Below the pieces are notes generated by a model. The model did no database searches. It was not told the DNA's origin and worked only from the letters and a program-made list of their open reading frames with translations. Shown here piece by piece: positions 18,655 through 52,836 of a stretch of DNA of 64,000 nt. The first letter of the stretch is position 1. Every line of letters begins with the position of its first letter. Source of the DNA: an uncultured Acidobacteriota bacterium (GTDB lineage Bacteria; Acidobacteriota; Thermoanaerobaculia; Multivoradales; JAHEKO01); the NCBI GenBank assembly GCA_963713825.1, contig CAVQNG010000003.1:736001-800000 (forward strand). The letters run 5' to 3'. Position numbers and translations under genes: made by a program.

Positions 18655-19830
18655 TTATCGCAGGTAGATCCTGGGGACCCGGCTCGTGATGGTCGAGACG
18701 ACCTCGTAGTTGATGGTGTCGAGCGTTGTTGCCATCTCGTCCGCGGTGAGCACCTCGTCGCCTTGCCGGCCGAGGATCACCACCTCATCGCCTTCGGTTG
18801 CCCCGGGGACCTCTCCCACGTCGAGCAGGGTCAGGTCCATACAGATCCTGCCGACGATGGGAACCCGCTGGCCCTTGACGAGCATCTCGCCGCGGCAGGA
18901 CAGGCCTCGGTTCAGGCCATCCGCATAGCCCACTGCTACGGTGGCAAGGCGCGTGGGCCGGGGTGTCTCGTAGGTGATGCCATAGCTGACGCCGAAACCG
19001 GCTGGCACCTCCTTGAGCTGGATGATGCGGGCCTTCCACTCCATGACCGGTTTCAACTCGACACGGCTTTGATCGACCTCTGCCGATGGATAGAGCCCGT
19101 AGGTGGCGATTCCGGGTCTGACCATGTCCAGATGAGAGTCCGGCATGTCCAGGAGTGCTGCGCTGTTCGCAGCATGGCTCAACGAAAACTCGATACCCTC
19201 CTGCTTCAGGCGGCCCACCAACTCCTGGAAGCGCTTCAGCTGTCGGTTGGCATAGGTCTTGTCCGAACGGTCAGCAGTGGCGAAGTGCGTAAAGAGCCCC
19301 TCGGCCTCGAGACCGGGCAGACCAGTCACGCCTACGACTTCGCTGTACCGGTGGTGCGCAGCGCTGTCGGTTGCCTCTTCAACCCTTGGCTCATCCGTCA
19401 ACAAGCCGAGTCGGCCCATCCCGGTATCGACCTTGATGTGGACCCGGACTCGCTTGCCTCTCGAAGAGGCCTCCGCTGCCAGGGCCTCGGCCGTTTCCCG
19501 CGTGAAGACGGCCTGAGTCAAGTCGAGGTCCAGAAGGGTGTCGATCTCTTCGGCTGGCGTCAGTCCGAAGATCAGGATGGGGGCTTCAATCCCCGCCTCG
19601 CGAAGCTCGACGGCCTCATGAAGACGTGCCACACCAAGCCAATCCGCGCCAGCCTCGAGAGCCCCTTGCGACACGGCAATCGCACCGTGCCCATACCCGT
19701 TGGCCTTGACCACGGCCATGAACCTAGAATCCGGACGCGTGGCCCGGCGTAGCTCGGCGATGTTGTGGCGGTAGGCGGCGAGATCGATCTCGGCCCACGT
19801 CAGCGCTTCGGACAGGATCTCTTCTCCCAA
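18655..19830 (-). CDS. alr: Alanine racemase
   Basis: VVKANGYGHG (PLP Lys), HIKVDTGMGRLG, VSYG, GYADG, GRICMD. Confidence 0.97.
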   Translation of the reverse strand: MGEEILSEALTWAEIDLAAYRHNIAELRRATRPDSRFMAVVKANGYGHGAIAVSQGALEAGADWLGVARLHEAVELREAGIEAPILIFGLTPAEEIDTLLDLDLTQAVFTRETAEALAAEASSRGKRVRVHIKVDTGMGRLGLLTDEPRVEEATDSAAHHRYSEVVGVTGLPGLEAEGLFTHFATADRSDKTYANRQLKRFQELVGRLKQEGIEFSLSHAANSAALLDMPDSHLDMVRPGIATYGLYPSAEVDQSRVELKPVMEWKARIIQLKEVPAGFGVSYGITYETPRPTRLATVAVGYADGLNRGLSCRGEMLVKGQRVPIVGRICMDLTLLDVGEVPGATEGDEVVILGRQGDEVLTADEMATTLDTINYEVVSTITSRVPRIYLR

Positions 19831-19868
19831 GAAAATCGGCTCCCCCGGGATTATCCCCGGAGGAGCCG
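19831..19868 (-). terminator. Rho-independent terminator after the TonB receptor gene
   Basis: Minus strand CGGCTCCTCCGGGG-ATAA-TCCCGGGGGAGCCG hairpin followed by ATTTTC. Confidence 0.65.
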
Positions 19869-19896
19869 GAAGAGTGAAACAAGTGTACTCAGCTAA

Positions 19897-22785
19897 CTAG
19901 AACTCGAACCCGACAGCCAGCTGCAGTCGGCGTGGATTGAAGAAATCTCTCGGCTCGCCGAACCTGGCACTGTTGACCTTGTTCTGGATGTTGTACCCGG
20001 TCTGGTTGTCGAAGAGGTTGAAGAGATCGGCGGTCAGCCTGATGCGGTATCGACTGCCGAAGTTGAAGAACTGGGTGTAGTTCAAGTCCAGCTGGTAATG
20101 CTCGTCGGTGCGGCGAGACCCGGCTGGCTCGGCGTAACGACTGGTGTCGCTGGTGCTGCCGGTGTACTGCGATGCGATGGCCCGGTAGTCCCAGGCCTCC
20201 CAGGGCTGTCCGTCCTGATAGACAAAGAATCCACCAGTGGTCGCATTCCAGGGCAGGTTGTAGTAACCGAAGACCTTGAACTGGTTGCGCCGATCGCCAC
20301 GCAGGTAGCCATAGCGGTTGTTCCAGAGCTGGCGCCCGGCCCAGTCGGCGATGAAGGACGAGCCGACGAAGATGTTCCCATCGTTCGAGGTCGTCGTGTT
20401 GTCCTGGTCGAAGTTGCCGTAGTACTGACTCCAGGTATACCCCGCTTGCGCGTACCACTTGGCGCTGCGGTACTCGGCCTCGAGGGCGACCTCGTAGTAG
20501 TCGGTAAAGGCATCGTCCAACTGCGCGATGACGTAGGACGAGCCACCGATCTCATCCCGGATGTCATCCAGGTAGGGGATGTAGAGCTCCCGGGGGATGC
20601 CCGCCGGCGGTTCGAGGATGACCCTGTCATCGTTGGCGGTGTCCTCCCAGAAGTTCTTCCCCTTGCGGTAGCGGAAGTGGCTGCGGGCGACCATTCGGCT
20701 CGAGACCTGCCGATCGTAGCCGACCAAGAACTCGTCGATGTAGCGGGGATCCAAGTCGTCGTCGAACCACTTACCCGAAGAGGATCGTACCGGGTCGGTC
20801 GCCAGATAGTCGCCGTTCGCATCGAACTGGATGTCGATCTGGCGTTGCAGGTTGCGATCCCACGAAGCGGCTCTGGGCAGTGAGCTGGCAGCCGGGTTGT
20901 AGCGCGCGTAGCTGGCATAGGCCTTGTCCCTGCCATTCCAGCTCCAGGTGGCACCCAGACGGGGCTGGATCATCTCGCCGAAGCCGATCTTGTACATCTC
21001 GTACTCGTTGCCCGGCGCGTTCTCGAACCCGGAGACACCCTGGCCCGTGTAGCTCAGACCCGAACCGAAATAGGTGTCCTCGGAAAAGAGGAAACCCACA
21101 TTGAAAGTCCAGTTCTTCATCGTGAAGGTATCGTTGATCTCGATGCCCTGGGACTCCATCGAGGAGACGATCTTGGGTACCGACTCCGCCAGGCTCTGTT
21201 GCCAGACGCGGGCCTCGTAGAAGACCGGAGTGCCGTCGGGGAGCTCATCTCGTCCGCCCGTGAATTCAATCTCACCCCAGCCGTTGGAGACTCGTAGCAG
21301 TTCTTCCGAGACGTCGTACATTTGATAGCCGATATGTAGCTGATGCCGGCTTAGAAGGTAGTCGTAGCCGATCGAGAAATCGGTACGGAAGAAATCGATG
21401 CCGTCGATGGTCCCGTCGACGCCGACTTGACCACCACCCCGCGGGACTCCGTCCTCGTTGTAACCGTACTGCTGGATGATCGGTGCGGCCAACAGATTGA
21501 AGGCGGGATCGCCGTCGAGGAAGTTGGGAACGTAGAACTGACCCTGGGTATCCAGGGCCGAGACGTTGATACTCCTGCCTGGACCGATGTCGAGGTTCAG
21601 GAGATTGTCGGGCGTCGTCGAGCCCTTGTTCGCCCAATCGGTGAACTTGAAATTGAGCGAGCTCCTGTCGTTGATGAGCCAGGTCCCTTCGATATAGCCA
21701 GTTTCCTGTGTCGAATCGTCGCCTACCGAGGTGGTCCCTGCACAGGTGTCACAGACACTCTGGCCCTGGGCGTCGGTCTCCGCATCCCTGTAGCTGCCGG
21801 AGAAGAGTAGGCTGGAAGTCGGCGTGAAGGTCAACTTGCCGAAAAACTCGTCCCTGACACTTTCCTCGCCTGGGACTTGGCCATAGAGGTTGACGCGATT
21901 GCTCTGTTCCACCGTCGGCCGATAGTACGAGCCGTAGAAGAAGATCTTGTCCTTCCACAGGGGGCCACCGATGCCGAGCGTCAGCCAATCCTTGTCCTCA
22001 TCGAAAGTCTCGTCAGACTCCTCGGTGACATCGCTGGTCATGTTGGCACCCTGGTATTGGTAGTTCACCAGGCCGCGCCAGGCGTTGGTGCCGGAGCGGG
22101 TGACCGAGTTGACGGTCAAGCCACCCGAGCGGTTGAAATCCACGGCTTTGACGCCGCCGCGGATGAAGGAGACCTGCTCGATGTCGTAGGCGGCCGGCTC
22201 CGTGGTCAGCGAACCGAACAGTGGCAAACCAACATCGACGCCATCGATCTTGTAGACGTTGTCCTGCCCGCTACCGCCGGCGCTGGGTCCACGGATGGTG
22301 TCCTCGGTGTACTGGACGCCCGGGGCCAACTTCAGGAAGTCCCGATACTCCTGGCCCACCGGCAGGGCATCGATGGTCTGGTCAGAGATAGCAGACTGAA
22401 TCGTCGGCGTGGTGAGGTCCAGGCTCTCGGTTGCCGCCACCACTTCGATGACATCTTCGACCGAGGCAGAGGTCATCGTGACGTTGACCACGGTGTTCTT
22501 CTCCAGGAGCACCTCCAGGGAGTACTTCTGGGTGGCCATGCCATCCATTTCGAACGTTAGCTCGTAGTTGCCAGGGGGGAGAAATGGGAATCGATAGAGA
22601 CCTGTTCCCTCGCTGACAACGATACGCGGCTGCGGCAAGACATCGCCGCTCGCGGTGACGGTGACACCCGGCAAGTCCGTGCCGTCGTCCATGGTGATGG
22701 TTCCGGATACGGTACCGGTCTCCTGGGCGAAGGCCGGGACGCAGAGTACCCCGACAGCCAGGAGAATGAATAGATAACGTCTCAT
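19897..22785 (-). CDS. Oar-type TonB-dependent receptor with carboxypeptidase-regulatory-like N-domain
   Basis: Signal peptide MRRYLFILL..AFA, G.LPGVTVT, plug (LAPGV, N.Y.IDG, TRSGTN), C-terminal PRRLQLAVGFEF; AAGGGGG RBS. Confidence 0.92.
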   Translation of the reverse strand: MRRYLFILLAVGVLCVPAFAQETGTVSGTITMDDGTDLPGVTVTASGDVLPQPRIVVSEGTGLYRFPFLPPGNYELTFEMDGMATQKYSLEVLLEKNTVVNVTMTSASVEDVIEVVAATESLDLTTPTIQSAISDQTIDALPVGQEYRDFLKLAPGVQYTEDTIRGPSAGGSGQDNVYKIDGVDVGLPLFGSLTTEPAAYDIEQVSFIRGGVKAVDFNRSGGLTVNSVTRSGTNAWRGLVNYQYQGANMTSDVTEESDETFDEDKDWLTLGIGGPLWKDKIFFYGSYYRPTVEQSNRVNLYGQVPGEESVRDEFFGKLTFTPTSSLLFSGSYRDAETDAQGQSVCDTCAGTTSVGDDSTQETGYIEGTWLINDRSSLNFKFTDWANKGSTTPDNLLNLDIGPGRSINVSALDTQGQFYVPNFLDGDPAFNLLAAPIIQQYGYNEDGVPRGGGQVGVDGTIDGIDFFRTDFSIGYDYLLSRHQLHIGYQMYDVSEELLRVSNGWGEIEFTGGRDELPDGTPVFYEARVWQQSLAESVPKIVSSMESQGIEINDTFTMKNWTFNVGFLFSEDTYFGSGLSYTGQGVSGFENAPGNEYEMYKIGFGEMIQPRLGATWSWNGRDKAYASYARYNPAASSLPRAASWDRNLQRQIDIQFDANGDYLATDPVRSSSGKWFDDDLDPRYIDEFLVGYDRQVSSRMVARSHFRYRKGKNFWEDTANDDRVILEPPAGIPRELYIPYLDDIRDEIGGSSYVIAQLDDAFTDYYEVALEAEYRSAKWYAQAGYTWSQYYGNFDQDNTTTSNDGNIFVGSSFIADWAGRQLWNNRYGYLRGDRRNQFKVFGYYNLPWNATTGGFFVYQDGQPWEAWDYRAIASQYTGSTSDTSRYAEPAGSRRTDEHYQLDLNYTQFFNFGSRYRIRLTADLFNLFDNQTGYNIQNKVNSARFGEPRDFFNPRRLQLAVGFEF

Positions 22786-22915
22786 CTTGTTCCCCCTTCT
22801 TGGGTTGGTGAGGGCCTTGAAGTCGGCAAGACTGCGAATCGTCATACGACCAGATCTCATCTGATTCCAGGGGTCGGCCGGCGCGAGGACGGCCCCGAAT
22901 TGTGCAAGCATTTTC

Positions 22916-22944: not shown

Positions 22945-23889
22945 TTATTGACTTCTCTCCAAATTTCTAAAGTTCGTCAGAGCTTTTCGAACATGGCCAC
23001 GGGCGGCGCTGAGGCGCTTTCGCGCCTCGTCAGACGAGATCCGGCAGCGCGCCATGACAATGGCGGTCTTGACCTCTCCATCTGCCGCGCGAATCAGGCG
23101 ATCAGCCTCCTGGCGCGAAACCTGTCCTGCACTCTCTACGATACGCACGGCTCGGTCCTGGAGTTTCGCGGAGCCCGGACGTAGATCCACCATCAGGTTC
23201 TCGTAGGCCTTGCCCGCGCGCACCATGGCCGCCGTGGTGATGGCATTGAGAACCGCCTTGGTGGCCGATCCCGCCTTGAGCCGGGTGGAACCGGTGAGAA
23301 TCTCCGGTCCGGTCTCGAGGGCGATGACCAGGTCGGCCTGGTCTTCCAGGCCTTCTGCGGCGGCGCATGTGACGAGAATCGTCCGCGCTCCCTGCTGCCG
23401 AGCTTGCGCCAGTGCACCGCGAGCGTACGGCGTCACCGAGCTCGCCGACAGGCCCACCAGGAGGTCGCCCGGGCCCAGATCGTCGACCGCAGTCTGGCCG
23501 TCGTCGAAGCGATCTTCCGCTCCTTCCTGGGCTCTGAAGACCGCCATCTGTCCACCTGCCATGATGGCGCGAATTCTCTCGGGATCGGTACCGAAGGTCG
23601 GCGGGCACTCCGCCGCCTCCAGGATGCCCAGCCGGCCACTTGTGCCTGCGCCGGCGAAGACCAGGTCGCCTCCAGCCTCCAGAGCCTCGGCAACCCAATC
23701 GGCTGCCTGGGCAATCTTTTCGCACTGCACCAGGGCCGCCTCGATCCCCGTGCGGTCCTCCTCGAGCAGGAGCAAGACGACTTCCTGACTCGACAGGGTG
23801 TCGAGCTCGGTGCTCTTGGGGTGACGACCCTCCGTCAGGAGAGTCTGCCAACTGTCGTGTGCGAGGCTCGGATCGGTAGGGTCGGTCAC
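22945..23889 (-). CDS. murQ: N-acetylmuramic acid 6-phosphate etherase
   Basis: LLTEGRHP, GAGTSGRLGILEAAECPPTFG, EGAED, TGPEILTGSTRLKAGSATK, NLMVD. Confidence 0.96.
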   Translation of the reverse strand: MTDPTDPSLAHDSWQTLLTEGRHPKSTELDTLSSQEVVLLLLEEDRTGIEAALVQCEKIAQAADWVAEALEAGGDLVFAGAGTSGRLGILEAAECPPTFGTDPERIRAIMAGGQMAVFRAQEGAEDRFDDGQTAVDDLGPGDLLVGLSASSVTPYARGALAQARQQGARTILVTCAAAEGLEDQADLVIALETGPEILTGSTRLKAGSATKAVLNAITTAAMVRAGKAYENLMVDLRPGSAKLQDRAVRIVESAGQVSRQEADRLIRAADGEVKTAIVMARCRISSDEARKRLSAARGHVRKALTNFRNLERSQ

Positions 23890-24017
23890 GATTGCCTACC
23901 CGAGTAGAGACGCTTCGTAAGCATTGGGATATTGTTCCGGAACGACGTCGGGCGGGCAAGCGACGTTGCCCTCTCGGGTTGACGCAATCACCTCTCGAGC
24001 CGGCTCACCAACCCATC

Positions 24018-25202
24018 GTGATCACCAACCCGACAGCGATCTTCGTCTATCTGACCTGCCTTCTGGGTGGCATCTTCTGGCTCAGCGGACTGCCCCGACT
24101 GAAGCGCCTCTTCAGTCTGACGCCGGCCGTCGTCTACGCCTACTTCCTGCCAGCGTTGAGCACGAGCTTCGGGGTCCTTCCTTCGAGCTCGACCACCTAC
24201 GACTGGATGGTGCGCTATCTGCTGCCGGTGAGCCTCATGCTCCTGATGACCACCGTCGACGTCAAGGCCATCCTGCGGCTCGGTGGCAAGGCGCTCATCA
24301 TGATGTTGGCGGGCTCGGTCGGGATCATTGTCGGTGGGCCGATTGCCTACGGCCTTCTGGGGCGCTCTCTACCACCCGATACCTGGATGGGGTTGGCGGC
24401 TCTGTCCGGAAGTTGGATCGGCGGCGCCCCCAACATGGTGGCCATCAAGGAAAGCGTCGGCACTCCCGATTCGGTCATGGCCCCGATCATCGTCGTCGAC
24501 ACCGTGGTGGCCTACAGCTGGATGGGCCTGCTGCTCTTCATGACCGCTTGGCAGCAGCGCTTCAACGACTGGGTCAAGGCGGACACCTCCGCGATCGACG
24601 CGTTGAACCAGAAATTGGCCATGACCGACCGTCAGCGACGACCTGCCGAGGTGCGACATCTGGCCATGATCCTGGCCCTTGGGTTCGGTGGAGCTGTCCT
24701 GGCGATCTGGGCTGGCGATCACCTGCCAGCGCTAGGCGACCCGACGATCATCAGCCATACGACCTGGTCAGTGGTCCTGGTGACCACCATGGGGCTCGCG
24801 CTGTCCTTCACCCCGGTCTCATCGGTCGAGACCTTCGGCGCCTCGCGGGTGGGCTACCTGGCGCTCTATCTGATGCTTACTGCCATCGGTGCCCAGGCCG
24901 ATCTCAAGAAGGTTCTGGAGGTGCCGCTGTACCTGGCGGTCGGTGTCTTGTGGATCTCCATCCACATTGCGGTTCTGATTTTGGTGGCCAAGCTCATTCG
25001 GGCGCCGCTGTTCTTCGTGGCCACCGGCAGCATGGCCAACATCGGTGGCCCGGTCTCGGCCCCGGTGGTGGCCTCGGTCTTTCACCCGGCGCTGGCTCCC
25101 GTGGGGGTTCTCATGGGCGTCACAGGGTACATAATAGGCATCTACGGCAGCCTTCTGTGCGCCTGGCTGCTGTCGCTCGTAGCAACCGCTTTGGGCTTCT
25201 AA
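24018..25202 (+). CDS. DUF819-family multi-pass membrane protein (putative transporter)
   Basis: YLLP, GSWIGG.PNMVA, SMANIGGP.SAP motifs; about 11 TM helices. Confidence 0.85.
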   Translation: MITNPTAIFVYLTCLLGGIFWLSGLPRLKRLFSLTPAVVYAYFLPALSTSFGVLPSSSTTYDWMVRYLLPVSLMLLMTTVDVKAILRLGGKALIMMLAGSVGIIVGGPIAYGLLGRSLPPDTWMGLAALSGSWIGGAPNMVAIKESVGTPDSVMAPIIVVDTVVAYSWMGLLLFMTAWQQRFNDWVKADTSAIDALNQKLAMTDRQRRPAEVRHLAMILALGFGGAVLAIWAGDHLPALGDPTIISHTTWSVVLVTTMGLALSFTPVSSVETFGASRVGYLALYLMLTAIGAQADLKKVLEVPLYLAVGVLWISIHIAVLILVAKLIRAPLFFVATGSMANIGGPVSAPVVASVFHPALAPVGVLMGVTGYIIGIYGSLLCAWLLSLVATALGF

Positions 25203-25230: not shown

Positions 25231-26232
25231 ATGACGATTCGCGTGATGCACGTGGGTTTGGGACCGATTGGAGTCGGAGTCTTGAAACAGGTCATGGAAA
25301 GGCCAGGATTCGAGGTCGCCACCGCGGTGGACATCGACCCAGAAAAGGCTGGCAAAGACGTCGGTGAGATTCTGGATCTCGAAGACAAGACCGGTGTCGT
25401 GGTGCAGAGCGACCTCAAAGGCGCTCTTGCAAGCCATGACGCAGATGTCGTGGCCCTTTGCACCGGTTCGACCCTGCCTGGAATCAGATCCCAGCTCGCA
25501 GCGATCCTGGCGGCAAGGCTGCCTGTCGTCTCGACGACCGAGGAGCTCTCCTTCCCGCAGTTTTCAAACGAGACACTCGCTGCGGAGATCGACGAGATGG
25601 CCCGGGAGGCAGGAGTGGCCGTTGTCGGTACCGGTGTCAATCCGGGCTTCGCCATGGACACCCTACCCGTCGTCCTGAGCGCCGCCTGCGAGCGTGTGGA
25701 CTCGGTGACCGTGGACCGGATCCAAGACGCCAGCAGTCGCCGGCTTCCCTTTCAGAGGAAGATCGGGGCCGGGCTCGAGCCGGACGACTTCCGCCAGAAG
25801 GCGGATCGCCTCGAGATCCGACACGTCGGGCTGACCGAGTCCATCGCCATGATCGCCGCCGCCTTCGGATGGGAGCTCGATCGAATCACCGACGTCATCG
25901 AGCCCAAGATCGCCGACGAGCCGGTGGCCAGCAACTTCCTCTCGGTCGAACGGGGACAGGTCGCCGGCCTGATTCAAGACGGAGTCGGGTTCCGGAATGG
26001 AGAGCCGATCATCCGGCTCCATATGGAGGCCTACCTGGGGGCTCCCGAATCCTACGATGCGGTGCGCATCGAGGGTTCGCCAGCGCTGTACTCGAAGATC
26101 GACGGAGGCATTCCAGGGGACATCGCCACGGCCTCGGTGACCGTCAACACCCTGCCCCGAGCCCTGGCGGCCCCACCAGGCCTCCACACCATGAGGGATC
26201 TTCCGATCCCCTCCTGGTGGTCAGGGGCCTAG
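25231..26232 (+). CDS. NAD(P)-dependent amine/diamino-acid dehydrogenase (2,4-diaminopentanoate dehydrogenase / DapB-like family)
   Basis: GLGPIG Rossmann, VVSTTEEL, GTGVNPGF.MD, GGIPGD.ATA. Confidence 0.8.
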   Translation: MTIRVMHVGLGPIGVGVLKQVMERPGFEVATAVDIDPEKAGKDVGEILDLEDKTGVVVQSDLKGALASHDADVVALCTGSTLPGIRSQLAAILAARLPVVSTTEELSFPQFSNETLAAEIDEMAREAGVAVVGTGVNPGFAMDTLPVVLSAACERVDSVTVDRIQDASSRRLPFQRKIGAGLEPDDFRQKADRLEIRHVGLTESIAMIAAAFGWELDRITDVIEPKIADEPVASNFLSVERGQVAGLIQDGVGFRNGEPIIRLHMEAYLGAPESYDAVRIEGSPALYSKIDGGIPGDIATASVTVNTLPRALAAPPGLHTMRDLPIPSWWSGA

Positions 26233-29079: not shown

Positions 29080-29213
29080 GGCCGGCAGCGTACCACGACA
29101 GATTTGCCGTCCGGGCACCCTTTCATGGTCCTGTTGCCTGTCCTTGGCAGGGCTGCGAGAATCAGCCCGTTCGACGAATCCGCTTATCGAAGTCCCACCC
29201 TTTGGGAGTGACA

Positions 29214-30311: not shown

Positions 30312-30618
30312 GGGTTGAGGCGGCCGTCGTTCCTCCCGGCCGATCTTTGAGGGCTTGGGGGTTGAATCGTCCGTCGCTTGCTCCGGCCGACCTTTGAGGC
30401 CGTGGGGGCCCCCCTCCCATTCCTCTAGACCCCTGGGCCCTTACGCCCCTACTGCCCTAAGCCCCTATTGCCTTCAACGGTGCCAGAGGTTCGTTCGGGT
30501 GGCTCGCCTGTGGGGTGCCGAGTCGAGCGCAGCGCAAGGGCCATCGCAGAGCACAACAGAGGAGGCGCGATGACGAGACAAGGTGGCGGCCCACCTCAAT
30601 GTAGGGGAGGGGCTTCCC
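30312..30618. repeat. Composite repeat cluster 3, left part (interrupted by IS481)
   Basis: Closely similar to the reverse complement of 50830-51105; ends in the GTAG-REP half tgtaggggaggggcttccc. Confidence 0.85.
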
Positions 30619-31916: not shown

Positions 31917-31980
31917 CGCAAGGGGCTCCCCTACAAAGCCGACGCCGTCCCCCTGCGGACCACCCGGACGGGCCTCAACG
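31917..31980. repeat. Composite repeat cluster 3, right part
   Basis: cgcaaggggctcccctaca REP half, then agccgacgccgtcccc..cggaccaccc matching the reverse complement of 50775-50814. Confidence 0.75.
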
Positions 31981-45097: not shown

Positions 45098-45838
45098 TCA
45101 TCCGCGCGGCATTATATGTCTCAACGCCGGCCATTCACCGCCGGCCGCCGCGAGATCGAGGACCACATCGAGCCTGTCGTGGCCGCGGAGCAACGAGCAG
45201 GGCCACGCGGGCGTTTCCGGTCCGTCCAGCAGCGCGTGCACGGCCTTCGCCTTGGCTTCGCCGACCGCCAGCATGACTAGACGACGGGCGGAGAGCAGCG
45301 TTTCCACCCCCATGGTGACAGCCCGCAGGGGTCTCCAGTCCTCGGGTACTTCCAGGGACTCTGCCAAATCCGGGGGAAGCAGCACAGGGTGGGTTGTTGC
45401 CTGTGGTGGTCCAGGTAGGTTGTAGGCCACATGGCCATCCGCTCCAACTCCCAGGAACACCAGGTCCAGGCCTCCCGCCGCCGCCACGGCTTCATCGTAG
45501 CGCGTGCATTCGAGCCCGGGCTCTGCCTCTGCTTTGGGGATGTCGCATCGCTCGGGGTCGAGACCGATGCGCGTCCAAGCGTGGCGCCGCATGAAGCTCT
45601 GAAAGGAGGCCGGATGATCCCCGGGCAGTAGCAACTCGTCGAGGTTGAAAGCCTTGGCCCGGGAGAGATCCAGGTCTCCCTGGGAGTGGAGCCTCGACAA
45701 CTCCTCGTAAACGGGAATCGGCGTGCGGCCCGTAGGTAACCCCAGAACCAGCTCGGGCTCGTCGCTGGCGGCGAGCGCGATCAATGCCGCGACCGATCTC
45801 GCGGCGGCGTGCGCATCGCTGTGGATCAGAAGGTTCAA
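45098..45838 (-). CDS. nagB: Glucosamine-6-phosphate deaminase
   Basis: LGLPTGRTP, FNLDE, LGVGADGHVAYN, AVTMG. Confidence 0.9.
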   Translation of the reverse strand: MNLLIHSDAHAAARSVAALIALAASDEPELVLGLPTGRTPIPVYEELSRLHSQGDLDLSRAKAFNLDELLLPGDHPASFQSFMRRHAWTRIGLDPERCDIPKAEAEPGLECTRYDEAVAAAGGLDLVFLGVGADGHVAYNLPGPPQATTHPVLLPPDLAESLEVPEDWRPLRAVTMGVETLLSARRLVMLAVGEAKAKAVHALLDGPETPAWPCSLLRGHDRLDVVLDLAAAGGEWPALRHIMPRG

Positions 45839-46596
45839 AGCTCTCCAAAATGGGTCAGCAGAATGCCCCCCTCACTGATGGCTCGGAGCGCCTCAGGATG
45901 GGTCAGAACTGCGAGCTCTTGTTCGCGCTCATCGGCATAGCTGCTGTCGAGGCGTAGTGCCTCATCGACCCTGGCCGGATGGCACATCAACTCCGTGACT
46001 CCCGGCGCGAGATTGCCCAGGATCTCCAGAAGAACCTCCAGCCGCGCCTCGGAGCCGAAGAAGCGCTCGACAAAAAAGTCACTGGTCGCGACACCCGCCT
46101 GGCGCAGCCGCTCTCCGACTTCGTCCGAGGCGTTACGGACCGGCAAGCTGTACCTCTCAGCAATCTTGACCAGGGCATCGCAGACCATGGGTAAGCGGTG
46201 AGAGTGGTGGTGGCTGTCGAGATGCGTTGGCAAGCGACCAGCCAGGGCACGGAAGCGCTCGAACTGGGCCTCGACCTCGGCCATCACCTCCTCGGGGCGC
46301 GCCCCCTCGAGGCCCTCTGGCTTGGCGGGAAATCTCCCCTCCCCATCAACCAGACTGGGCACCTCCTCTGATGGCAAGATTGGCCTCCCCCCTGTCAGGG
46401 CGACGTGAAGGCCGATACCGATTTCCGGGGAGCTTGCCCATGCCTCGGTTGCTTCCTTGGCGGGGGTGAATCCCACCATGAGCGTTGCGCTGGTGACCAG
46501 GCCCCGGGCGTGTGCCTCGAAGATCCCGGCATTGATGCCCGGAGTCCGCCCCAGATCGTCGGCATTGACGATGAGTCGCTTCTCTGTTTCAGGCAT
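45835..46596 (-). CDS. ChbG/YdjC/HpnK-family carbohydrate deacetylase
   Basis: LIVNADDLG, GLHV, PTHLDSHHH, ELMCHP; ATG 46596 overlaps the kinase stop. Confidence 0.92.
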   Translation of the reverse strand: MPETEKRLIVNADDLGRTPGINAGIFEAHARGLVTSATLMVGFTPAKEATEAWASSPEIGIGLHVALTGGRPILPSEEVPSLVDGEGRFPAKPEGLEGARPEEVMAEVEAQFERFRALAGRLPTHLDSHHHSHRLPMVCDALVKIAERYSLPVRNASDEVGERLRQAGVATSDFFVERFFGSEARLEVLLEILGNLAPGVTELMCHPARVDEALRLDSSYADEREQELAVLTHPEALRAISEGGILLTHFGEL

Positions 46597-47492
46597 TAGC
46601 TCAACAGCTCGAGGGCTAGCGTCACGGCACCGGTCGCCGGCTCTTTCTCCAGTCGAACAACCTCTGCCTTGGGCAGATCCAGATTGCTCTCGACTCGCTC
46701 GAAGAGACTGGGACAGGCTCGGAAGGCGCCACCGGCGAGTACCAGCGGGTAGTTCTCGGTGAACGTCAGCTTTCGATCGACGGCCCTGGCCGCCCGTGCC
46801 AGATGCTGTGCCGCCTGATCCAAGAGTGAGTTCGCCGCCACGTCGCCGTCGTCGGCCGCCTCCTGGACGACACTGGCCAGCTTGGCCACGCGGTCGCGGG
46901 ACAGCTCCTGGTCGTAGAACCACTTGACGAGACCCTCGGGAACGTCCAGGTCGAGCTTCTGGGAGATGAGATCGAAGAGCGTTGTCGCCGGCCCTCGGCC
47001 GTCCACCGCCCGCACGCCCTGCCGCACCGCCGCGTGACCCAACCAGAAGGCCGACCCTTCGTCACCCAGGAGGTAGCCCCAACCACCAGAGCGAGCCGTC
47101 TCGCCGCTCGGGTCCACCCCGTAGGCGATCGAGCCGGTCCCCGCCGAGACCACGATGCCGATCCCCTCCGGCGCTCCCGCCACCAGGGCGATGAGCGCGT
47201 CGTTGACGATCGAAATATTCTTGCGCAGTCCTAGTCGGCGTAGCAGGCCCTGGATCAAAGCCTTCTCTTCGGGTCTGTCCACACCCGCCATGCCGAGGCA
47301 AATCGTGTCGATCGGACCTGGGGCCTCCAGGTCTTCGATGACCTGATAGAGGACCTTCTCCACGCTCAACTCGCCGTGGATGACGAGATTCGCTCCCCCG
47401 CCGCGGGCCTTGGCGAGAACCTTGCCCGTCTCGTCCGCCAACAGACCTACCGTCTTCGTGCCACCCGAATCGATGCCGACGACATATCGCAA
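46596..47492 (-). CDS. BadF/BadG-type N-acetylglucosamine/N-acetylmuramate kinase (MurK-like)
   Basis: GIDSGGTKT, GMAG, ND, AGTGS, GGWGYLLGDEGS. Confidence 0.9.
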   Translation of the reverse strand: MRYVVGIDSGGTKTVGLLADETGKVLAKARGGGANLVIHGELSVEKVLYQVIEDLEAPGPIDTICLGMAGVDRPEEKALIQGLLRRLGLRKNISIVNDALIALVAGAPEGIGIVVSAGTGSIAYGVDPSGETARSGGWGYLLGDEGSAFWLGHAAVRQGVRAVDGRGPATTLFDLISQKLDLDVPEGLVKWFYDQELSRDRVAKLASVVQEAADDGDVAANSLLDQAAQHLARAARAVDRKLTFTENYPLVLAGGAFRACPSLFERVESNLDLPKAEVVRLEKEPATGAVTLALELLS

Positions 47493-47535: not shown

Positions 47536-48546
47536 CTACCCTTCACGTGGTCGTACTCCCAGTCCCGGTTCCTTCGGCAGGAGGAGTCGGCCGTCCCTGA
47601 CCGTGACACCGACAAAGGGATCGTCCTTGATCAGAAGGTTGCCATCGAGATCGGCATGGTCGACGAGCGGCGACAGGTGGGCAGCGGCAGTGATGGCCAG
47701 GGACGACTCCACCATGCACCCCAGCATGACTTGCATCCCGTGAGCCCGGGCCACGGCGATCATCCGTCGGGCCTCGGCAATACCACCGCACTTCATGAGC
47801 TTGATGTTGATCCCATCGAAGGCTCCAGCCAGGCGGGGAATGTCGGTAGCCCGGTGGACGCTTTCGTCGGCAAACAGAGGCAGGGGGCTGAGCCGACGCA
47901 ACTCGCGCATCTCCTCGATCTGCCCGGCCGGCAGCGGCTGCTCGACCAACTCGACGCCCATGAACTCGAGCCACTCGAGCCTCGCTTGGGCTCCCTCCAG
48001 CGTCCAACCTTCGTTGGCATCGACCCGCAAGGGTCGATCTGTAACCCCTCGAACGGCTTCCAGAATCTGCCGATCATCGTCCGACCCCAGCTTGACCTTG
48101 AGTACCTCGTAGTCGCCGGCCTCCTTGACCTTCGCCTCCACGACCTCCGGCGTGTCCATTCCGATCGTGAAGGAGGTCACCGGCGCCTGCCGTGCATCGA
48201 TCCCCAGCAACTCATAGAGAGGCACCCCCAGCCTCTTGCCCGCCATGTCGCAAAGCGCCATGTCCATCGCGGCCTCGGCGGCAGCTTCGCCAGGGACGGC
48301 GACACTATTCGCCGCCGAGTCGTAAGCCGCAGGGTTGGTCAATCGCTCCGCCATCGACTCTGCGGCCCTGGCTGCCGAATCGCAATCCTGACCATAGCGC
48401 TCGATGGGCGCCGCCTCTCCGAGCCCCACGACTCCGCCCTGCTCCAGTTCCAAGACAAGCGTCTTTCGGGTGTCGCTCGCCCCGCGCGCCAGGCGAAAGG
48501 TGTGGCGCAGCTCGAGGCTCTGTTGAAGGTGTCGTAGCTGGATCAT
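47536..48546 (-). CDS. L-Ala-D/L-Glu dipeptide epimerase (enolase superfamily)
   Basis: TSFTIG, KVKLG, DANEGW, EQP, DES, NIKLMKCGG, GCMVE, DLDG. Confidence 0.92.
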   Translation of the reverse strand: MIQLRHLQQSLELRHTFRLARGASDTRKTLVLELEQGGVVGLGEAAPIERYGQDCDSAARAAESMAERLTNPAAYDSAANSVAVPGEAAAEAAMDMALCDMAGKRLGVPLYELLGIDARQAPVTSFTIGMDTPEVVEAKVKEAGDYEVLKVKLGSDDDRQILEAVRGVTDRPLRVDANEGWTLEGAQARLEWLEFMGVELVEQPLPAGQIEEMRELRRLSPLPLFADESVHRATDIPRLAGAFDGINIKLMKCGGIAEARRMIAVARAHGMQVMLGCMVESSLAITAAAHLSPLVDHADLDGNLLIKDDPFVGVTVRDGRLLLPKEPGLGVRPREG

Positions 48547-48689
48547 GCCTCGCCTTCCCTTGTTTCCCTCGGCCAACCGGAGCATTTTATCTCGGCGACA
48601 GAGCCCCACCTGCGGGCTGGAAGTCCCGCTTGCTGTGTTATACAAAGTCCCTCTCACAACGAATCCGATAACAGAGCTGCCTGCCGACC

Positions 48690-50753
48690 ATGCGCGCTAC
48701 AAACTCCATCCTTGCATCACTCCTGGCGATCGGCTTCACGCTACTGGCCTGCGGCCCCGAGTCTTCGAAACCCGGGTCGGCAGCGAAGTTCGAGTCTCGT
48801 GCCTCGCAACCCCCCTCCATTCTCCTGGTCACCCTCGACACGACAAGGGCCGACGCCCTGGGTTTCGAGACGGACAGCGTCGATACCCCCTCTTTGGATG
48901 CTCTGGCGGCGCGCGGCCAAGTATTTTCGCAGGCCTATGCCACCGCCCCTATGACGCTACCGGCCCACACCTCGATCCTGACCGGTCTCTACCCGTCAGA
49001 GCACGGCATCCATGAGAACGGCAGGAGATTCGCCGATTCCGAAAGCCTGTTGGCAGGCAAGCTCCAACGTCTCGGCTACAGCACTGCAGCCTTCGTCTCC
49101 GCCTTTCCCTTAGCGGCCGAGTTCGGACTGGCCTCGGGCTTCGATCACTACGACGACGGGCTGCCGGCCAATCAATCCGAGCGGCCGGCCAACGAGACCA
49201 CTGCCCGGGCGTTGGATTTCCTGAAGCAGACTTCGGCCACCCCGCTGTTCGTCTGGGTTCACTATTTCGATCCGCATGAACCCTATGAACCTCCGGAGCC
49301 CTTTCGGTCCCAGTACCCGAAGGACCCCTATCTCGGCGAGATCGCCTTCATGGATCGAGAGTTGGGCCGCTTGACGAGCGCCTTCGAAGCGCGGCTCGAA
49401 GGCAAGCCCTACAAGATCGTGGTGGCTGGAGACCATGGTCAGGGTCTCGGGGACCATGGCGAAGCCTTACACGGCAACCTGCTCTACCAGGGTGTGACGC
49501 GGGTTCCACTCATTGTTGCGGGGTCCGCAGTCGCTGCCGGCCGGATCGACGTTGCTGTCAGCACTCGCCGCATCTTCGACACCCTCCTCGGCTGGGCCAG
49601 CAGTGAAGACGCGAGCCCTGGTCTGTTGAGTGCCGCAACCGAATCCGTGCTGGCTGAGGCGTTCAAGCCCTATCTGCAGTACGGCTGGCAACCGCAAGTC
49701 ATGGCGGTCGATGGATCGACGAAGATCATCCTCTCGGGAGAGCTGGAAGTCTTCGACATCATTGCCGACCCGGCGGAAGCGACTGACCTCGCGGGTCGCG
49801 TCCAGGTCGATCCGGAGGTGATGAAGACGGTTCGAGACCACTGGGAGCGAGCCCTCTCTGGCCCCTTGGAGTCCGGTGCCATCTTGGGGCAGGAGGCGAC
49901 GGAGCGGCTGGCAAGCCTCGGCTATATCGGCTCTGAAGGGAACCCGCTGCTGCGCGACGGAGCGCCCAATCCGAAGGACATGGTCGACTTGTTCCACGAT
50001 CTCGATGTCGGCTCGGTGCTTTTCGTCCGCAAGGAGTACGAAAAAGCCTTGCCGCTCTACGAGCGCGTCCTCTCCGCTGATCCCTACAATCGTGCCGTCT
50101 GTCTCCATCTTGCCGTGGCTCATTCCGTGCTCGGTCATGAACAACGCGCTCTCGAGTACTTCGACCGCGCCAGGAAGATCAGTCCCGACTCTGTGGATCT
50201 ACAGCACTACCAGGCTATGCATCACTTTCGTCTTCAGCAGTGGGAGGAGGCCGAGCCCCTCTTCGAGATCGTCCTCGCCGCAACACCCGACAGGCTGCCG
50301 GCGCTAGAGTGTCTGGCTCAGATCCGCGAACGGCAAGGCCGCATCGAGGAAGCGAGCTCACTTCTCGAACGCATCGTGACCCTGAAGAGCGAACCGCAAG
50401 CCGAGTTTGTGAAGTTGGGTGAGATGAGAATGTCGGTCGGCGACACCCAGGAGGCGATCCGAGCTTTCGAGAGCGCTCGGGTACTTCAAGAGCAGGAGTT
50501 TGATCATTCCCTGGAGTTGGGGGTGCTCTATCTGGCCGACCGGCGACTCGTCGAGGCGGCAGCGAGCCTGGACAGGGTGACCCCTACCCACCCGGCCTAC
50601 CCCTTGGCGCTCTTCAAGCGCGCCCAGGTCAGCGTCCTGCTCGGTGAGCCCGACCGCGACCAGCGCATCCAACTGGCGCGCGACAACGCCGATGCCACGA
50701 CCGCACCTCTGATCGCCAACGAAAAACTGTTCAAAGGCCCACCAGCTCCTTAG
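48690..50753 (+). CDS. Sulfatase-like (alkaline phosphatase superfamily) hydrolase with TPR repeats, lipoprotein
   Basis: Lipobox LLAC; DTTRAD, TLPAHTSILTG, HYFDPH, DHG, LGYI, C-terminal TPRs. Confidence 0.88.
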   Translation: MRATNSILASLLAIGFTLLACGPESSKPGSAAKFESRASQPPSILLVTLDTTRADALGFETDSVDTPSLDALAARGQVFSQAYATAPMTLPAHTSILTGLYPSEHGIHENGRRFADSESLLAGKLQRLGYSTAAFVSAFPLAAEFGLASGFDHYDDGLPANQSERPANETTARALDFLKQTSATPLFVWVHYFDPHEPYEPPEPFRSQYPKDPYLGEIAFMDRELGRLTSAFEARLEGKPYKIVVAGDHGQGLGDHGEALHGNLLYQGVTRVPLIVAGSAVAAGRIDVAVSTRRIFDTLLGWASSEDASPGLLSAATESVLAEAFKPYLQYGWQPQVMAVDGSTKIILSGELEVFDIIADPAEATDLAGRVQVDPEVMKTVRDHWERALSGPLESGAILGQEATERLASLGYIGSEGNPLLRDGAPNPKDMVDLFHDLDVGSVLFVRKEYEKALPLYERVLSADPYNRAVCLHLAVAHSVLGHEQRALEYFDRARKISPDSVDLQHYQAMHHFRLQQWEEAEPLFEIVLAATPDRLPALECLAQIRERQGRIEEASSLLERIVTLKSEPQAEFVKLGEMRMSVGDTQEAIRAFESARVLQEQEFDHSLELGVLYLADRRLVEAAASLDRVTPTHPAYPLALFKRAQVSVLLGEPDRDQRIQLARDNADATTAPLIANEKLFKGPPAP

Positions 50754-50774: not shown

Positions 50775-51105
50775 GAGATTCGTTCGGGTGGTCCGACAGG
50801 GGACGGCGTCGGCTACTCAGACTGCAACGGGAGGCCGCCACATCGTCTCGTCATCACGCCCCCTCTCCTGTGCTCTCTCGTGGACCTTGCGCTGCGCTCG
50901 ACTCGGCGCCCCCTGTCGGACCACCCGAATGAACCTCTGGCATCGTTGAAGGCAATAGGGGCTTAGGGCAGTAGGGGCGTAAGGGCCTAGGGGTCTAGAG
51001 GAATGGGAGGGGGGCCACGGCCTCAAAGAACGGCCGGAGGTACAACGGCCGCCTCAACCCCAAGCACCCAAGGAACGGACGGACGTAGTCCGGGCGCCTC
51101 AACCC
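50775..51105. repeat. Composite repeat cluster 4, including a 163-bp element bounded by 28-bp inverted repeats
   Basis: gagattcgttcgggtggtccgacagggg (50775-50802) vs cccctgtcggaccacccgaatgaacctc (50910-50937), 2 mismatches; the rest is an inverted copy of cluster 3. Confidence 0.85.
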
Positions 51106-51106
51106 T

Positions 51107-52027
51107 CTAGGACACGGCTCCTTCGAGGGCGACGAGCGTGCCGTTCGTGGCATCCAGGTGAACCTCGGTGCCGTAGGGTAGGGCCGTGTTGCGGTCTCCG
51201 TGGCCAAAAGTGCCACCGAAAACAACCGGAACAGCGAGCCTCTCGAGGCGCTCAACGAGGACCTCGCGGGTCGTGGGGTGCTGCTCGACCCCTACTTGGA
51301 TGTCGTCACAATCGGTGAAATCGCCAACCACGACTCCCGACACCCGGGACAGCACACCGGCCAGCTCGAAGTGCGTCAACAGTCGATCGACGCGGTAGGG
51401 AAGCTCTCCAACGTCCTCGAGAAACAGCACCGCACCGTCGAACTCGGGCTGCAGGCTTGTGCCCAGAAGTCGCGACAGCACTTCCAGGTTGCCTCCCAGA
51501 AGAGGCCCTCGCGCCACACCCGAAACCACATTCTCGAGCCCAAGCAACAGGATGCCGGGCTCCGGATTCTCGAGCAGTCTGAAGAGGGACTCTCTGTCTT
51601 CACGGGGAAGTCCCGCGAACTGACTGATCATCGGCCCGTGGATCGCTGCCACTCCGGACCGGGCGCATGTCGCGAGCAGCGCCGTGACATCGGAGAAACC
51701 GACGATCGGTTTCGGTCTCTCCAGAAGGGCCCGGCTGTCGATTTGCGCCAGGATTCGCAGCAAGCCGTACCCCCCACGGGCGAGAAAGATGGCTCTGCAC
51801 TCGGGGTCCGCGATGGCGGTGTTGAGCGCCTCCAACCGATGGTCGTCGTCGCCGGCCAGGAAGCCGTGCTTGGAGAAGAGGCTGGCCTCGTCGAAACATA
51901 GATCGTAGCGCCCCTCCAGGGCCTCGAGACCAGCCATGAACCGCTGCCTGTCGACCGGCCCTGAAGCCGCTACGACTCGAACCCGGTCCCCGACTTCCAG
52001 GCGGGGGGGGCGAAGGATCGCGCTCAT
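51107..52027 (-). CDS. ldcA: LD-carboxypeptidase (S66), cytoplasmic
   Basis: RGGYG, GFSDVT, HGP, GGNL, LEDVGE, FGH; no signal peptide. Confidence 0.9.
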   Translation of the reverse strand: MSAILRPPRLEVGDRVRVVAASGPVDRQRFMAGLEALEGRYDLCFDEASLFSKHGFLAGDDDHRLEALNTAIADPECRAIFLARGGYGLLRILAQIDSRALLERPKPIVGFSDVTALLATCARSGVAAIHGPMISQFAGLPREDRESLFRLLENPEPGILLLGLENVVSGVARGPLLGGNLEVLSRLLGTSLQPEFDGAVLFLEDVGELPYRVDRLLTHFELAGVLSRVSGVVVGDFTDCDDIQVGVEQHPTTREVLVERLERLAVPVVFGGTFGHGDRNTALPYGTEVHLDATNGTLVALEGAVS

Positions 52028-52122
52028 CCCCCGATCCTATCCGCTCATCCTCGGAAGCGGGCCGAGCGACGGCCCCGAATACCTTACAATCGAACCCTCT
52101 CGCGCTGCCGGAGTCGACACCA

Positions 52123-52836
52123 ATGCCTCAGAGAACCCGCTTCGCTGATCTCCTCTCTGCCTGTACCGGAATCGTACTTATGGCGGCGTTGGCAGGCTGC
52201 GCCTCCTCGCCGGCGATTCATGATCGACCCGTCTCCTTTTCTGCCGCCCGACAACAGGCAACGCTCGATTACATCGCCAAGCATTACGGTAAAGAACCCT
52301 TGGACATCTCGATCGAGCCCCGAATCATCGTTTTGCATTGGACGGCGATCCCCGACCTCGCCGGCTCTTTTGCTGCCTTCGAGGCCGAGCAGCTGCCGAG
52401 CTCTCGCCCAGACCTGGCAATGGCTGGACAGGTCAACGTCTCGATCCAGTTCCTCGTCGATCGCGACGGCACCGTCTACCGCCTCATGCCCGAGACGTGG
52501 ATGGCGCGGCATACGATCGGACTCAACTACAACTCCATTGGGGTCGAGAATGTCGGCGGTGGCGACAGCGTCGACAACATGACCGCTGCCCAGATCGAGG
52601 CCAACATCCGGCTCGTGCGTTACTTGGCCAAGAAATACCCATCGATCGAGTACCTGATCGGGCACTCGGAGTATCGCGAATTCGAAGGTCACCCCTTGTG
52701 GCTCGAACTGGACGACGACTACCGCACCGAGAAGGTCGATCCCGGAGATCGTTTCATGACGGCGGTCCGCGATGCGGTCGCTACGATCGGCTTGAAAGGT
52801 CCGGACGACGTTCGAGCCGAAAAGGAAGTCGAGTGA
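52123..52836 (+). CDS. N-acetylmuramoyl-L-alanine amidase (Amidase_2/PGRP-like), lipoprotein
   Basis: Lipobox LAGC; IVLHWT, FLVDRDG, ARH..GLN..SIGVEN, GH, K.DPG. Confidence 0.9.
   Translation: MPQRTRFADLLSACTGIVLMAALAGCASSPAIHDRPVSFSAARQQATLDYIAKHYGKEPLDISIEPRIIVLHWTAIPDLAGSFAAFEAEQLPSSRPDLAMAGQVNVSIQFLVDRDGTVYRLMPETWMARHTIGLNYNSIGVENVGGGDSVDNMTAAQIEANIRLVRYLAKKYPSIEYLIGHSEYREFEGHPLWLELDDDYRTEKVDPGDRFMTAVRDAVATIGLKGPDDVRAEKEVE

Follow-up and report, generated by a model that had tools for sequence, protein, structure and literature searches.

Peptidoglycan is a large and nitrogen-rich share of microbial necromass, and to our knowledge hardly anything is known about how it crosses the outer membrane of diderm bacteria living in soil or sediment. 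Several systems that deal with its fragments have been described. The murQ-murR-murP-amiE-nagZ-namZ rescue operon of Bacillus subtilis acts extracytoplasmically, from the non-reducing end (PMC8054146; 10.1101/2021.12.02.470905), and the salvage cluster of Tannerella forsythia and Bacteroides fragilis comprises MurT-MurK-MurQ, AmpG, and NamZ1 (10.1101/2021.12.02.470905; PMC10465942). For the N-acetylglucosamine (GlcNAc) CUT system of Xanthomonas campestris, the TonB-dependent transporter NixC has been proposed, on indirect evidence, for peptidoglycan degradation products; its authors regard this as the first evidence for an outer-membrane transporter of that type (PMC4173781), and it is the only precedent for an importer of this kind that we found. 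Rhodothermus marinus RmNag3, a NagZ of glycoside hydrolase family 3 (GH3) with a C-terminal beta-lactamase domain, is described as the only characterized enzyme of that architecture, of which the GlcNAcase activity alone was assayed (PMC6987092). Here we analyze a 34-kb locus of an uncultured Acidobacteriota bacterium from sediment, located at positions 18655-52836 of the window (the whole stretch of 64,000 nucleotides that was analyzed, i.e., positions 736,001 to 800,000 of contig CAVQNG010000003.1), which probably encodes a conserved pathway for the use of peptidoglycan fragments that reaches from the outer membrane to the cytoplasm. Its substrates, the direction of flux, and a foreign origin of the fragments are what we infer from the analyses below.

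Gene content and conservation of the cluster

Pfam models were compared with the translations of 34 candidate open reading frames (ORFs) spanning 16947-55816, and NCBIfam models with the 23 genes of the cluster, namely 22 cellular genes and one IS481 transposase (Table 1). Family matches were obtained for 26 of the 34 translations and for none of the eight alternative ORFs on the opposite strand; the G+C content of the window is 62-65% throughout, so that long spurious ORFs are abundant. Sixteen cellular genes fit murein or amino-sugar breakdown, four encode transporters (the outer-membrane barrel, the sodium:solute symporter (SSS), the DUF819 protein, and the double-Gate protein), and two have no obvious link with murein (the 2,4-diaminopentanoate-dehydrogenase-like gene and the sulfatase-fold gene with TPR repeats). 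Five of the sixteen belong to murein-only families, namely MurQ, the NamZ-containing fusion, Amidase_2, and two S66 LD-carboxypeptidases; we know of no role of these families beyond murein. The other eleven are compatible with such breakdown (S12, class-A-like SxxK, M14, D-aminoacylase-like, M20, MR/MLE epimerase, BadF-type kinase, YdjC, NagB, LysA, and Alr). Every activity listed in the original prediction, which had been made from the letters and ORFs of the window, was found at its place, while the IS481 element and the sulfatase-fold gene were missing from that list.

To place the cluster in its lineage, we used a panel of 41 genomes of the order, consisting of its own genome (G000), five of the same genus, 19 of other genera of the family, and 16 of other families. 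An orthologue of the NagZ-AmiE part (at least 55% identity) is present in 13 of the 41 genomes, being continued into NamZ as a single three-domain frame in six (G000, G003, G004, G005, G023, and G033), split or interrupted before NamZ in four (G006, G011, G035, and G036), and truncated by a contig end in three. When all cluster proteins were compared with the corresponding regions of eight relatives, 21 of the 22 cellular genes were colinear in G003 of the same genus, where the IS is lacking and a contig end falls inside the transporter, and 14 of 22 were found, in rearranged order, in both G023 (another genus) and G036 (another family). Eight genes lie on one 16-kb contig of G006 (an unpublished genome), and the cluster is partly visible up to a contig end in G033 and G011; no cluster was seen at the region examined in G027 and G031. 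The transporter has a single-copy orthologue in 15 of the 41 genomes, 11 of which also have the NagZ-AmiE orthologue, and in six of these both lie on the same contig at most 17 kb apart. Because the clustering recurs across genera and families, it exceeds what chance would give. Its absence from relatives had been named beforehand as grounds for rejecting the original prediction, and the clustering proved to be conserved.

In a wider comparison, the named relatives are metagenome-assembled genomes labelled Thermoanaerobaculia, Vicinamibacteria, or Acidobacteriota. Of 80 fetched loci with the fusion, 16 also carry the symporter and the kinase, many of them from Gemmatimonadota at about 40% identity, whereas an orthologue of the transporter was found in just two of the 80. 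One Gemmatimonadota locus has the order NamZ, NagZ-AmiE, NagB-PIG-L fusion, SSS, and kinase, i.e., a homologous core module, and Bacteroidota loci have in common only a two-domain NagZ-AmiE gene. In another Gemmatimonadota locus (L075:4679-10528), NagZ-AmiE forms the end of a 1950-aa frame, and no Pfam family was matched by the ~1000 residues at its beginning; this may be an over-call or a larger fusion. DNA of the lineage itself is present in sediment metagenomes from at least 12 studies.

Genome-wide context and origin of the fragments

The original prediction had noted that neither anmK nor ampG lies in the window. This holds for the whole genome (96.4% complete, 38 contigs), in which a genome-wide search found neither AnmK nor AmpG, and NagA is also absent (best match to TIGR00221 27 bits, cut-off 226). 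At E <= 1e-20, NagA was found in none of the 41 genomes of the order and in nine of 14 control genomes. The genome encodes eight SLT lytic-transglycosylase domains as well as MurB, and the cell is thus not an auxotroph for N-acetylmuramic acid (MurNAc). A second NamZ, 40% identical to that of the cluster (G000:C25:548015-549109; L120:10012-11190), lies among ftsK, fmt, rsmB, and ddl; it has no evident signal peptide region before its domain and has a counterpart in all 41 genomes. Given eight SLT domains and no AnmK, AmpG, or NagA, anhydro-muropeptides from the cell's own turnover would not be fully usable. The lack of AnmK and AmpG despite lytic transglycosylases, together with the conserved energized importer, suggests that the fragments used are probably foreign and cut by hydrolases rather than the cell's own.

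The outer-membrane transporter

The only Pfam matches of the transporter, even at E <= 1, are CarboxypepD_reg and OMP_b-brl_4. Among 41 orthologues, 19 have weak Plug matches (E <= 0.01, best 1.1e-5) and three have barrel matches. An AlphaFold2 model built on the alignment of orthologues (mean predicted local distance difference test score 76.8, predicted template modelling score 0.79) agrees with the fold of this class, a 22-stranded barrel closed by an N-terminal plug: the top 50 Foldseek matches in the PDB are solely TonB-dependent transporters (probability 1.00), the best being the ferredoxin importer FusA (4zgv, E 4.5e-26), followed by YddB (E 2.0e-24). After the N-terminal domain there is a TonB-box-like motif, DVIEVVA, which fits the pattern D-x-I/L-x-V-x-A that we take to be that of the BtuB, FhuA, and FepA TonB boxes, and seven TonB C-terminal (TonB_C) domains above cut-off are encoded in the genome. 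The TonB receptor originally claimed is thus borne out by predicted fold only, the Pfam models having failed, and we accept the protein as a TonB-dependent transporter at the fold level.

The three-enzyme fusion and other exported hydrolases

The fusion contains, in this order, a GH3 NagZ domain, a beta-lactamase-fold (AmiE-like) domain, and a NamZ domain of glycoside hydrolase family 171 (GH171); its internal start is confirmed by P0121, a recorded product of the window that is 1342 aa long. The motif KHFPGHGDTSTDSH at 294 conforms to what we take to be the NagZ-type motif, KH(F/I)PG(H/L)GxxxxD(S/T)H, and the NCBIfam NagZ equivalog scores 161 bits, below its cut-off of 207. Both NamZ_N and NamZ_C are above their cut-offs (ORF residues 1049-1407), so that the C-terminal part is a predicted GH171 exo-beta-N-acetylmuramidase. 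The middle domain carries SLTK at 733; its nearest NCBIfam model is PBP4B (179 bits, cut-off 385), and its PDB neighbors are generic esterases and beta-lactamase-family proteins. Two of the three assignments originally made are therefore upheld, NagZ by the GH3 domain and its motif and NamZ by both of its domains, and the third is retained as AmiE-like. Among the 120 best clusters at 90% identity that contain the NamZ part (773-2463 aa), 100 have GH3, beta-lactamase, and NamZ domains and the remaining 20 have only the latter two; the three-domain fusion is thus common in metagenomes, where its database names are generic.

Signal peptides and lipoboxes were read by eye. With internal starts, Sec-type signal peptides were seen in the barrel, the S12 protein, the M14 protein, and the fusion, and five proteins have lipoboxes and are lipoproteins (S66a, Amidase_2, the sulfatase-fold protein, and the class-A-like and D-aminoacylase-like enzymes). 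LdcA (S66b), M20, the epimerase, YdjC, the kinase, MurQ, NagB, LysA, and Alr lack a visible signal. In both S66 copies the two Pfam domains are above cut-offs, and the E. coli LdcA equivalog gives 163 and 154 bits (cut-off 378). The class-A-like hydrolase is probably a DD-peptidase, judging from its SxxK, SxN, and KTG motifs. The S12 protein scores 134 bits with the AmpH model NF007943 (cut-off 266). For the amidohydrolase, the nearest PDB entries are the D-aminoacylase 1m7j (E 1.7e-75) and the N-acyl-D-glutamate deacylase 3gip (E 4.5e-70), and it is also similar to the sugar de-N-acetylases 9kb1 and 9kb3. The M14 protein has weak PDB matches; an MpaA-type murein peptide amidase is a possible identity, for which no entry was matched at E <= 0.001.

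Inner-membrane transport and sugar catabolism

The SSS symporter, whose gene stays beside the kinase gene in Acidobacteriota and Gemmatimonadota loci, is a candidate importer of MurNAc and GlcNAc. The DUF819 protein has nine hydrophobic segments by a crude hydropathy count; in the literature on this family we found a placement in the CPA/AT superfamily and no function. The double-Gate gene is the best conserved of the cluster, with identities of 78% in G023, 78% in G036, and 96% in G003. MurQ, the sole copy in the genome, also matches NF003915 (347.8 bits, cut-off 168). The MurK-like kinase of the original prediction fits the finding that its closest solved relative is the MurNAc/GlcNAc kinase 8zo3 (E 1.3e-49, full length), from which its specificity is predicted. 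YdjC, whose best NCBIfam model is chitin disaccharide deacetylase (209.5 bits, below the cut-off of 227), adjoins the transporter orthologue in G006, G011, G022, G023, G033, and G036, and we propose that it replaces the absent NagA. No literature tying YdjC to NagA was found among the best-ranked papers. In the Gemmatimonadota locus L058:13421-15352, the module of NamZ, NagZ-AmiE, SSS, and kinase includes a fusion of NagB with a PIG-L (LmbE-like) deacetylase, which by analogy supports the replacement of NagA by another deacetylase and would be a second, different candidate for it.

Cytoplasmic stem-peptide enzymes

Among the cytoplasmic enzymes that may act on stem peptides, the epimerase scores 259 bits with the DgcA model and 180 bits with the YcjG-type model of NCBIfam, both below their cut-offs. 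Elsewhere in the genome, a Mur ligase other than the MurC of the dcw cluster reaches 334.8 bits with the Mpl model (cut-off 388.7), and a sequence-based assignment as Mpl is likely. Together with the cytoplasmic LdcA, this ligase may permit the cell to reuse the tripeptide for its own wall; for this reason, catabolism and recycling are inseparable here.

The sulfatase-fold lipoprotein

The sulfatase-fold gene adjoins the transporter gene in G023 and G036 and is thus a conserved member of the cluster. In the alignment with the choline sulfatases 7oz8 and 7pth, its sequence TLPAH falls on their (C/S)xPxR motif, and the variant TLP(A/S)H is retained in three orthologues (G003, G023, and G036). 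Because this variant, in which Thr replaces the formylglycine Cys/Ser of the nucleophile motif, is conserved, a formylglycine-dependent sulfatase is unlikely. By analogy with the alkaline-phosphatase superfamily, the protein might be a phosphoesterase with a Thr nucleophile, and we speculate that it could strip phosphodiester-linked wall polymers.

Insertion element and flanking regions

The IS481 element has imperfect terminal inverted repeats of 71 nt, is flanked by the 3' ends of two convergent genes of the cluster, and is absent from the equivalent site in G003; two relatives, 68% identical, occur elsewhere in the genome. It is a recent passenger outside the system. A repeat of about 85-107 nt at 30512-30618 has at least 35 copies in the genome at 85-95% identity, and the intergenic stretch at about 50800-51030 shows a depth spike in DNA and RNA contigs; both probably represent an element like a repetitive extragenic palindrome or a miniature inverted-repeat transposable element.

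Both flanks are functionally unrelated, with radical SAM, acyl-CoA synthetase, ruvB, mreB, PBP2, and rodA genes on the left and FAD monooxygenase, AMP-binding, and type III polyketide synthase genes on the right. The boundaries drawn by the original prediction, 18655-52836, therefore hold, except that alr, the leftmost gene, is of doubtful membership. Genes for cell elongation (rodA, PBP2, and mreB) occupy 3655-9351; in the ORF list, mreB carries 150 additional residues at its N terminus, probably an over-call. The genes at 52864-62927 (FAD monooxygenase, AMP-binding enzyme, type III polyketide synthase, DUF2064, methyltransferase, and radical SAM) resemble a cluster for the biosynthesis of a small molecule.

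Table 1. Genes and insertion element of the locus, with positions in the window
Feature	Position	Strand	Evidence and remarks
Alanine racemase alr	18658-19830	-	TIGR00492 394 bits (cut-off 168)
TonB-dependent outer-membrane transporter	19900-22788	-	N-terminal CarboxypepD_reg domain; 963 aa from internal Met
MurNAc-6-phosphate etherase MurQ	22948-23889	-	TIGR00274 305.8 bits (cut-off 302)
DUF819 inner-membrane transporter	23892-25199	+	PF05684 303 bits
2,4-Diaminopentanoate-dehydrogenase-like amine dehydrogenase	25231-26229	+	PF19328 132 bits; NF040740 271 bits, below cut-off 400
Double-Gate inner-membrane protein (SpmA/SpmB-like)	26614-27840	-	PF07670 twice
M20 amidohydrolase/carboxypeptidase, cytoplasmic	27862-29250	-	TIGR01891 383 bits (cut-off 154); start probably Met ~29079
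S66 LD-carboxypeptidase (S66a), lipoprotein	29214-30305	+	PF02016 and PF17676; lipobox ISGC by eye
IS481-family insertion sequence	30600-31935		Transposase 30709-31737 (+); NF033577 241 bits (cut-off 224)
Class-A-like SxxK/SxN/KTG serine hydrolase, lipoprotein	31993-33213	-	PF13354; STVK86, SDN154, KTG338; lipobox LGGC
Diaminopimelate decarboxylase LysA	33224-34600	-	TIGR01048 415 bits (cut-off 298)
S12 (AmpH-like) serine DD-peptidase, exported	34644-36089	-	PF00144 270 bits; SVTK93, YSN188
D-aminoacylase/N-acyl-D-glutamate-deacylase-like amidohydrolase, lipoprotein	36136-37782	-	PDB matches; lipobox LISAC
M14-like zinc carboxypeptidase, exported	37888-39540	+	PF00246 71.5 bits, N-terminal part of profile only
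NagZ/AmiE-like/NamZ fusion, exported	39543-43568	+	PF00933 288 bits, PF00144 241, PF07075 243.5, PF20732 107; 1342 aa
Sodium:solute symporter (SSS)	43594-45045	-	TIGR00813 220 bits (cut-off 184)
NagB-like glucosamine-6-phosphate deaminase	45101-45838	-	PF01182 95 bits; TIGR00502 150 bits, below cut-off 237
YdjC-family sugar deacetylase	45838-46596	-	PF04794 218 bits
BadF-type sugar kinase, MurK-like	46599-47492	-	PF01869 135 bits
MR/MLE dipeptide/N-acyl-amino-acid epimerase (L-Ala-D/L-Glu epimerase or DgcA-like)	47539-48657	-	PF13378 and PF02746; start probably internal
Sulfatase-fold + TPR lipoprotein	48690-50750	+	PF00884 120 bits, TPR repeats
S66 LD-carboxypeptidase (LdcA-like, S66b), cytoplasmic	51110-52027	-	PF17676 and PF02016
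Amidase_2 MurNAc-L-alanine amidase, lipoprotein	52123-52833	+	PF01510 78.5 bits; lipobox LAGC

Proposed pathway and alternative explanations

In the pathway that we propose, soluble muropeptides and short glycan strands with reducing MurNAc ends, mostly from other cells, would enter via the TonB-dependent transporter. The periplasmic fusion would take off the terminal GlcNAc, then the stem peptide, and then the terminal MurNAc, a sequence that the domain order matches and that is described for B. subtilis NagZ, AmiE, and NamZ. Amidase_2, the two SxxK DD-peptidases, the LD-carboxypeptidase, the M14 protein, and the D-aminoacylase-like protein might de-crosslink, strip, and trim the peptides. 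The symporter would import the sugars, and the DUF819 and double-Gate proteins would import peptides or amino acids. The MurK-like kinase and MurQ would then convert MurNAc to GlcNAc-6-phosphate, and YdjC (in place of NagA) and NagB would convert GlcNAc-6-phosphate to fructose-6-phosphate. LdcA would yield the tripeptide, which the Mpl-like ligase could reuse; alternatively, the M14 protein, the epimerase, M20, and the D-aminoacylase-like protein might degrade the stem peptide, on which Alr would also act, and LysA would convert diaminopimelate to lysine. Since there is no SusD, regulator, or endo-muramidase, the substrate is likely to be soluble muropeptides or glycan strands, not sacculi. 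It is also conceivable, but rather doubtful when all parts are taken jointly, that the locus is a dedicated murein utilization locus of sediment Acidobacteriota with a SusD-less transporter specific for the muropeptides or glycan strands of dead cells, an assembly-line fusion, YdjC for NagA, and a Thr-nucleophile lipoprotein that strips, e.g., teichoic-acid linkage units on MurNAc O6; if true, this last activity would render Gram-positive walls digestible.

Several observations weigh against the use of peptidoglycan fragments by one dedicated pathway. The transporter matches neither Plug (PF07715) nor TonB_dep_Rec (PF00593) of Pfam even at E <= 1 and, except for a match of its N-terminal beta-sandwich to NOMO, no PDB sequence was matched by either the single protein or a 41-sequence profile; muropeptides are no more than its candidate ligand. 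It lies on a different contig from the fusion in five of the 11 genomes that have both, and it occurs without a NagZ-AmiE orthologue in G027, G030, G031, and G022 (the last only 61% complete). The AmiE-like label of the middle domain of the fusion derives from its beta-lactamase fold and position, with no family model behind it. Likeness to a Bacteroidota polysaccharide utilization locus (PUL), as the original prediction had it, does not hold in the strict sense, because Pfam and NCBIfam reveal no SusD-like family, no regulator gene, and no endo-acting muramidase or lysozyme family among the 23 genes, and the neighbors of the transporter gene are murQ and alr. Nor was an operator motif shared by at least four of the five divergent promoter regions in a crude test (12-mers with two mismatches, 10-mers with one, and 14-mers with three). 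Alr and LysA, which had been counted under stem-peptide catabolism, are housekeeping enzymes because both are sole genomic copies (in the case of lysA, the sole one above cut-off); lysA is retained within the cluster in G003, G023, and G036, while no alr was detected within the cluster in the more distant G023 and G036. As to expression, short contigs of metatranscriptome run X20 map on lysA, the S12 gene, the fusion, the epimerase gene, and LdcA with 0-12 differences, a weak hint of transcription from one run in which DNA carry-over is possible; runs X21 and X22 gave just two or three short, partly fitting contigs and are uninformative on expression.

The same genes might instead recycle the cell's own wall turnover, in a rescue like that of B. 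subtilis in which the transporter recaptures leaked fragments. NagZ, AmiE-like, NamZ, and MurQ make up the set of the B. subtilis recycling operon, as far as the available text of its reports goes (PMC8054146; 10.1101/2021.12.02.470905); moreover, the Mpl-like ligase and cytoplasmic LdcA would return the tripeptide to synthesis, alr and lysA are single housekeeping copies, and mreB, PBP2, and rodA are encoded 9-15 kb away on the left. However, we consider this explanation unlikely, given that anhydro-MurNAc ends left by eight SLT domains would have no known route without AnmK or AmpG, that fragments born in the periplasm would make unnecessary an energized outer-membrane importer such as the one conserved with the cluster across genera and families, and that the cluster is patchy (NagZ-AmiE in 13 of 41 genomes) while the NamZ paralogue that lies apart from it, in a housekeeping neighborhood, is present in all 41.

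Much less probable is a general locus for amino sugars and D-amino-acid peptides (from necromass such as chitin oligomers or glycoproteins), in which peptidoglycan would be one of several substrates: MurQ, NamZ, Amidase_2, and two LD-carboxypeptidases are present and Pfam detects no chitinase family among the 23 genes, even though GH3 NagZ, YdjC, NagB, and the kinase could serve chitin oligomers, the amidohydrolase resembles sugar de-N-acetylases, and the Rhodothermus enzyme with NagZ and beta-lactamase domains is reported to act on chito-oligosaccharides (PMC6987092). We would hardly give credence to a chance neighborhood of unrelated cell-wall and amino-acid genes, as might be suspected from ten transcription units on both strands, the lack of a regulator and of a shared promoter motif, and an IS element in the middle of the cluster, because the same genes are found together in other genera and another family despite rearranged order, accompanied by the single-copy transporter, by YdjC, and by the sulfatase-fold protein. 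The conserved use of peptidoglycan fragments, from outer membrane to cytoplasm, is therefore the explanation that we regard as probable.

Comparison with known systems

The term "peptidoglycan utilization locus" was not found in 8.1 million PMC papers and 0.36 million preprints, and, judged from titles and abstracts, no description of such a cluster was found in the literature searched. If read correctly, the locus supplies a candidate outer-membrane importer with a whole downstream route attached, and thereby a plausible route for the recycling of dead biomass, together with a widespread but generically annotated three-enzyme fusion and a proposed non-orthologous replacement of NagA that lends itself to testing. 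It would also provide metagenome markers for murein scavenging and enzymes for the analysis of muropeptides.

Similar to the B. subtilis operon as described in the available text, the locus is predicted to have NagZ, beta-lactamase-fold MurNAc-L-Ala amidase, NamZ (GH171), and MurQ activities. It differs in that the three exported enzymes are fused in one 1342-aa polypeptide, in that a symporter and an ATP kinase take the place of the MurP phosphotransferase system and there is no MurR, and in that it belongs to a cell with an outer membrane, through which a TonB-dependent transporter leads, and includes about ten additional peptide-handling genes. With T. forsythia it shares a diderm setting and, as predicted here, the use of exogenous peptidoglycan fragments, their periplasmic processing by an exported NamZ, MurNAc import, and a MurK kinase acting before MurQ (10.1101/2021.12.02.470905; PMC10465942). 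However, T. forsythia is described as a MurNAc auxotroph with AmpG, whereas the present genome has MurB and no AmpG; the kinase is nearest to the clostridial-type 8zo3, and T. forsythia MurK structures were not matched at E <= 0.001. The T. forsythia preprint (10.1101/2021.12.02.470905) makes no mention of TonB, SusC, or the outer membrane.

The link of a TonB-dependent transporter with amino-sugar use in the absence of SusD is shared with the Xanthomonas Nix system, which, unlike the present locus, centers on GlcNAc, NagA, AmpG, and glycoside hydrolases that act on chitin and N-glycans; NamZ, MurQ, and a stem-peptide module do not appear in the available part of the text (PMC4173781). RmNag3 likewise has a signal peptide and the architecture of NagZ plus beta-lactamase fold, but, according to the part of its report that is available, it has neither a NamZ domain nor related neighbors. 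Similar to SusC/SusD PULs of Bacteroidota, the locus combines a TonB-dependent importer whose N-terminal domain is carboxypeptidase-regulatory-like, exo-hydrolases that are lipoproteins or periplasmic, transport across the inner membrane, and catabolism in the cytoplasm, whereas a SusD-like gene, a hybrid two-component or extracytoplasmic-function regulator, and an endo-acting surface enzyme are lacking among its 23 genes. Taken together, the locus is a variant of known systems for the salvage and catabolism of peptidoglycan, distinguished by its conserved link to an outer-membrane transporter, the three-enzyme fusion, a route without NagA, and a sulfatase-fold partner.

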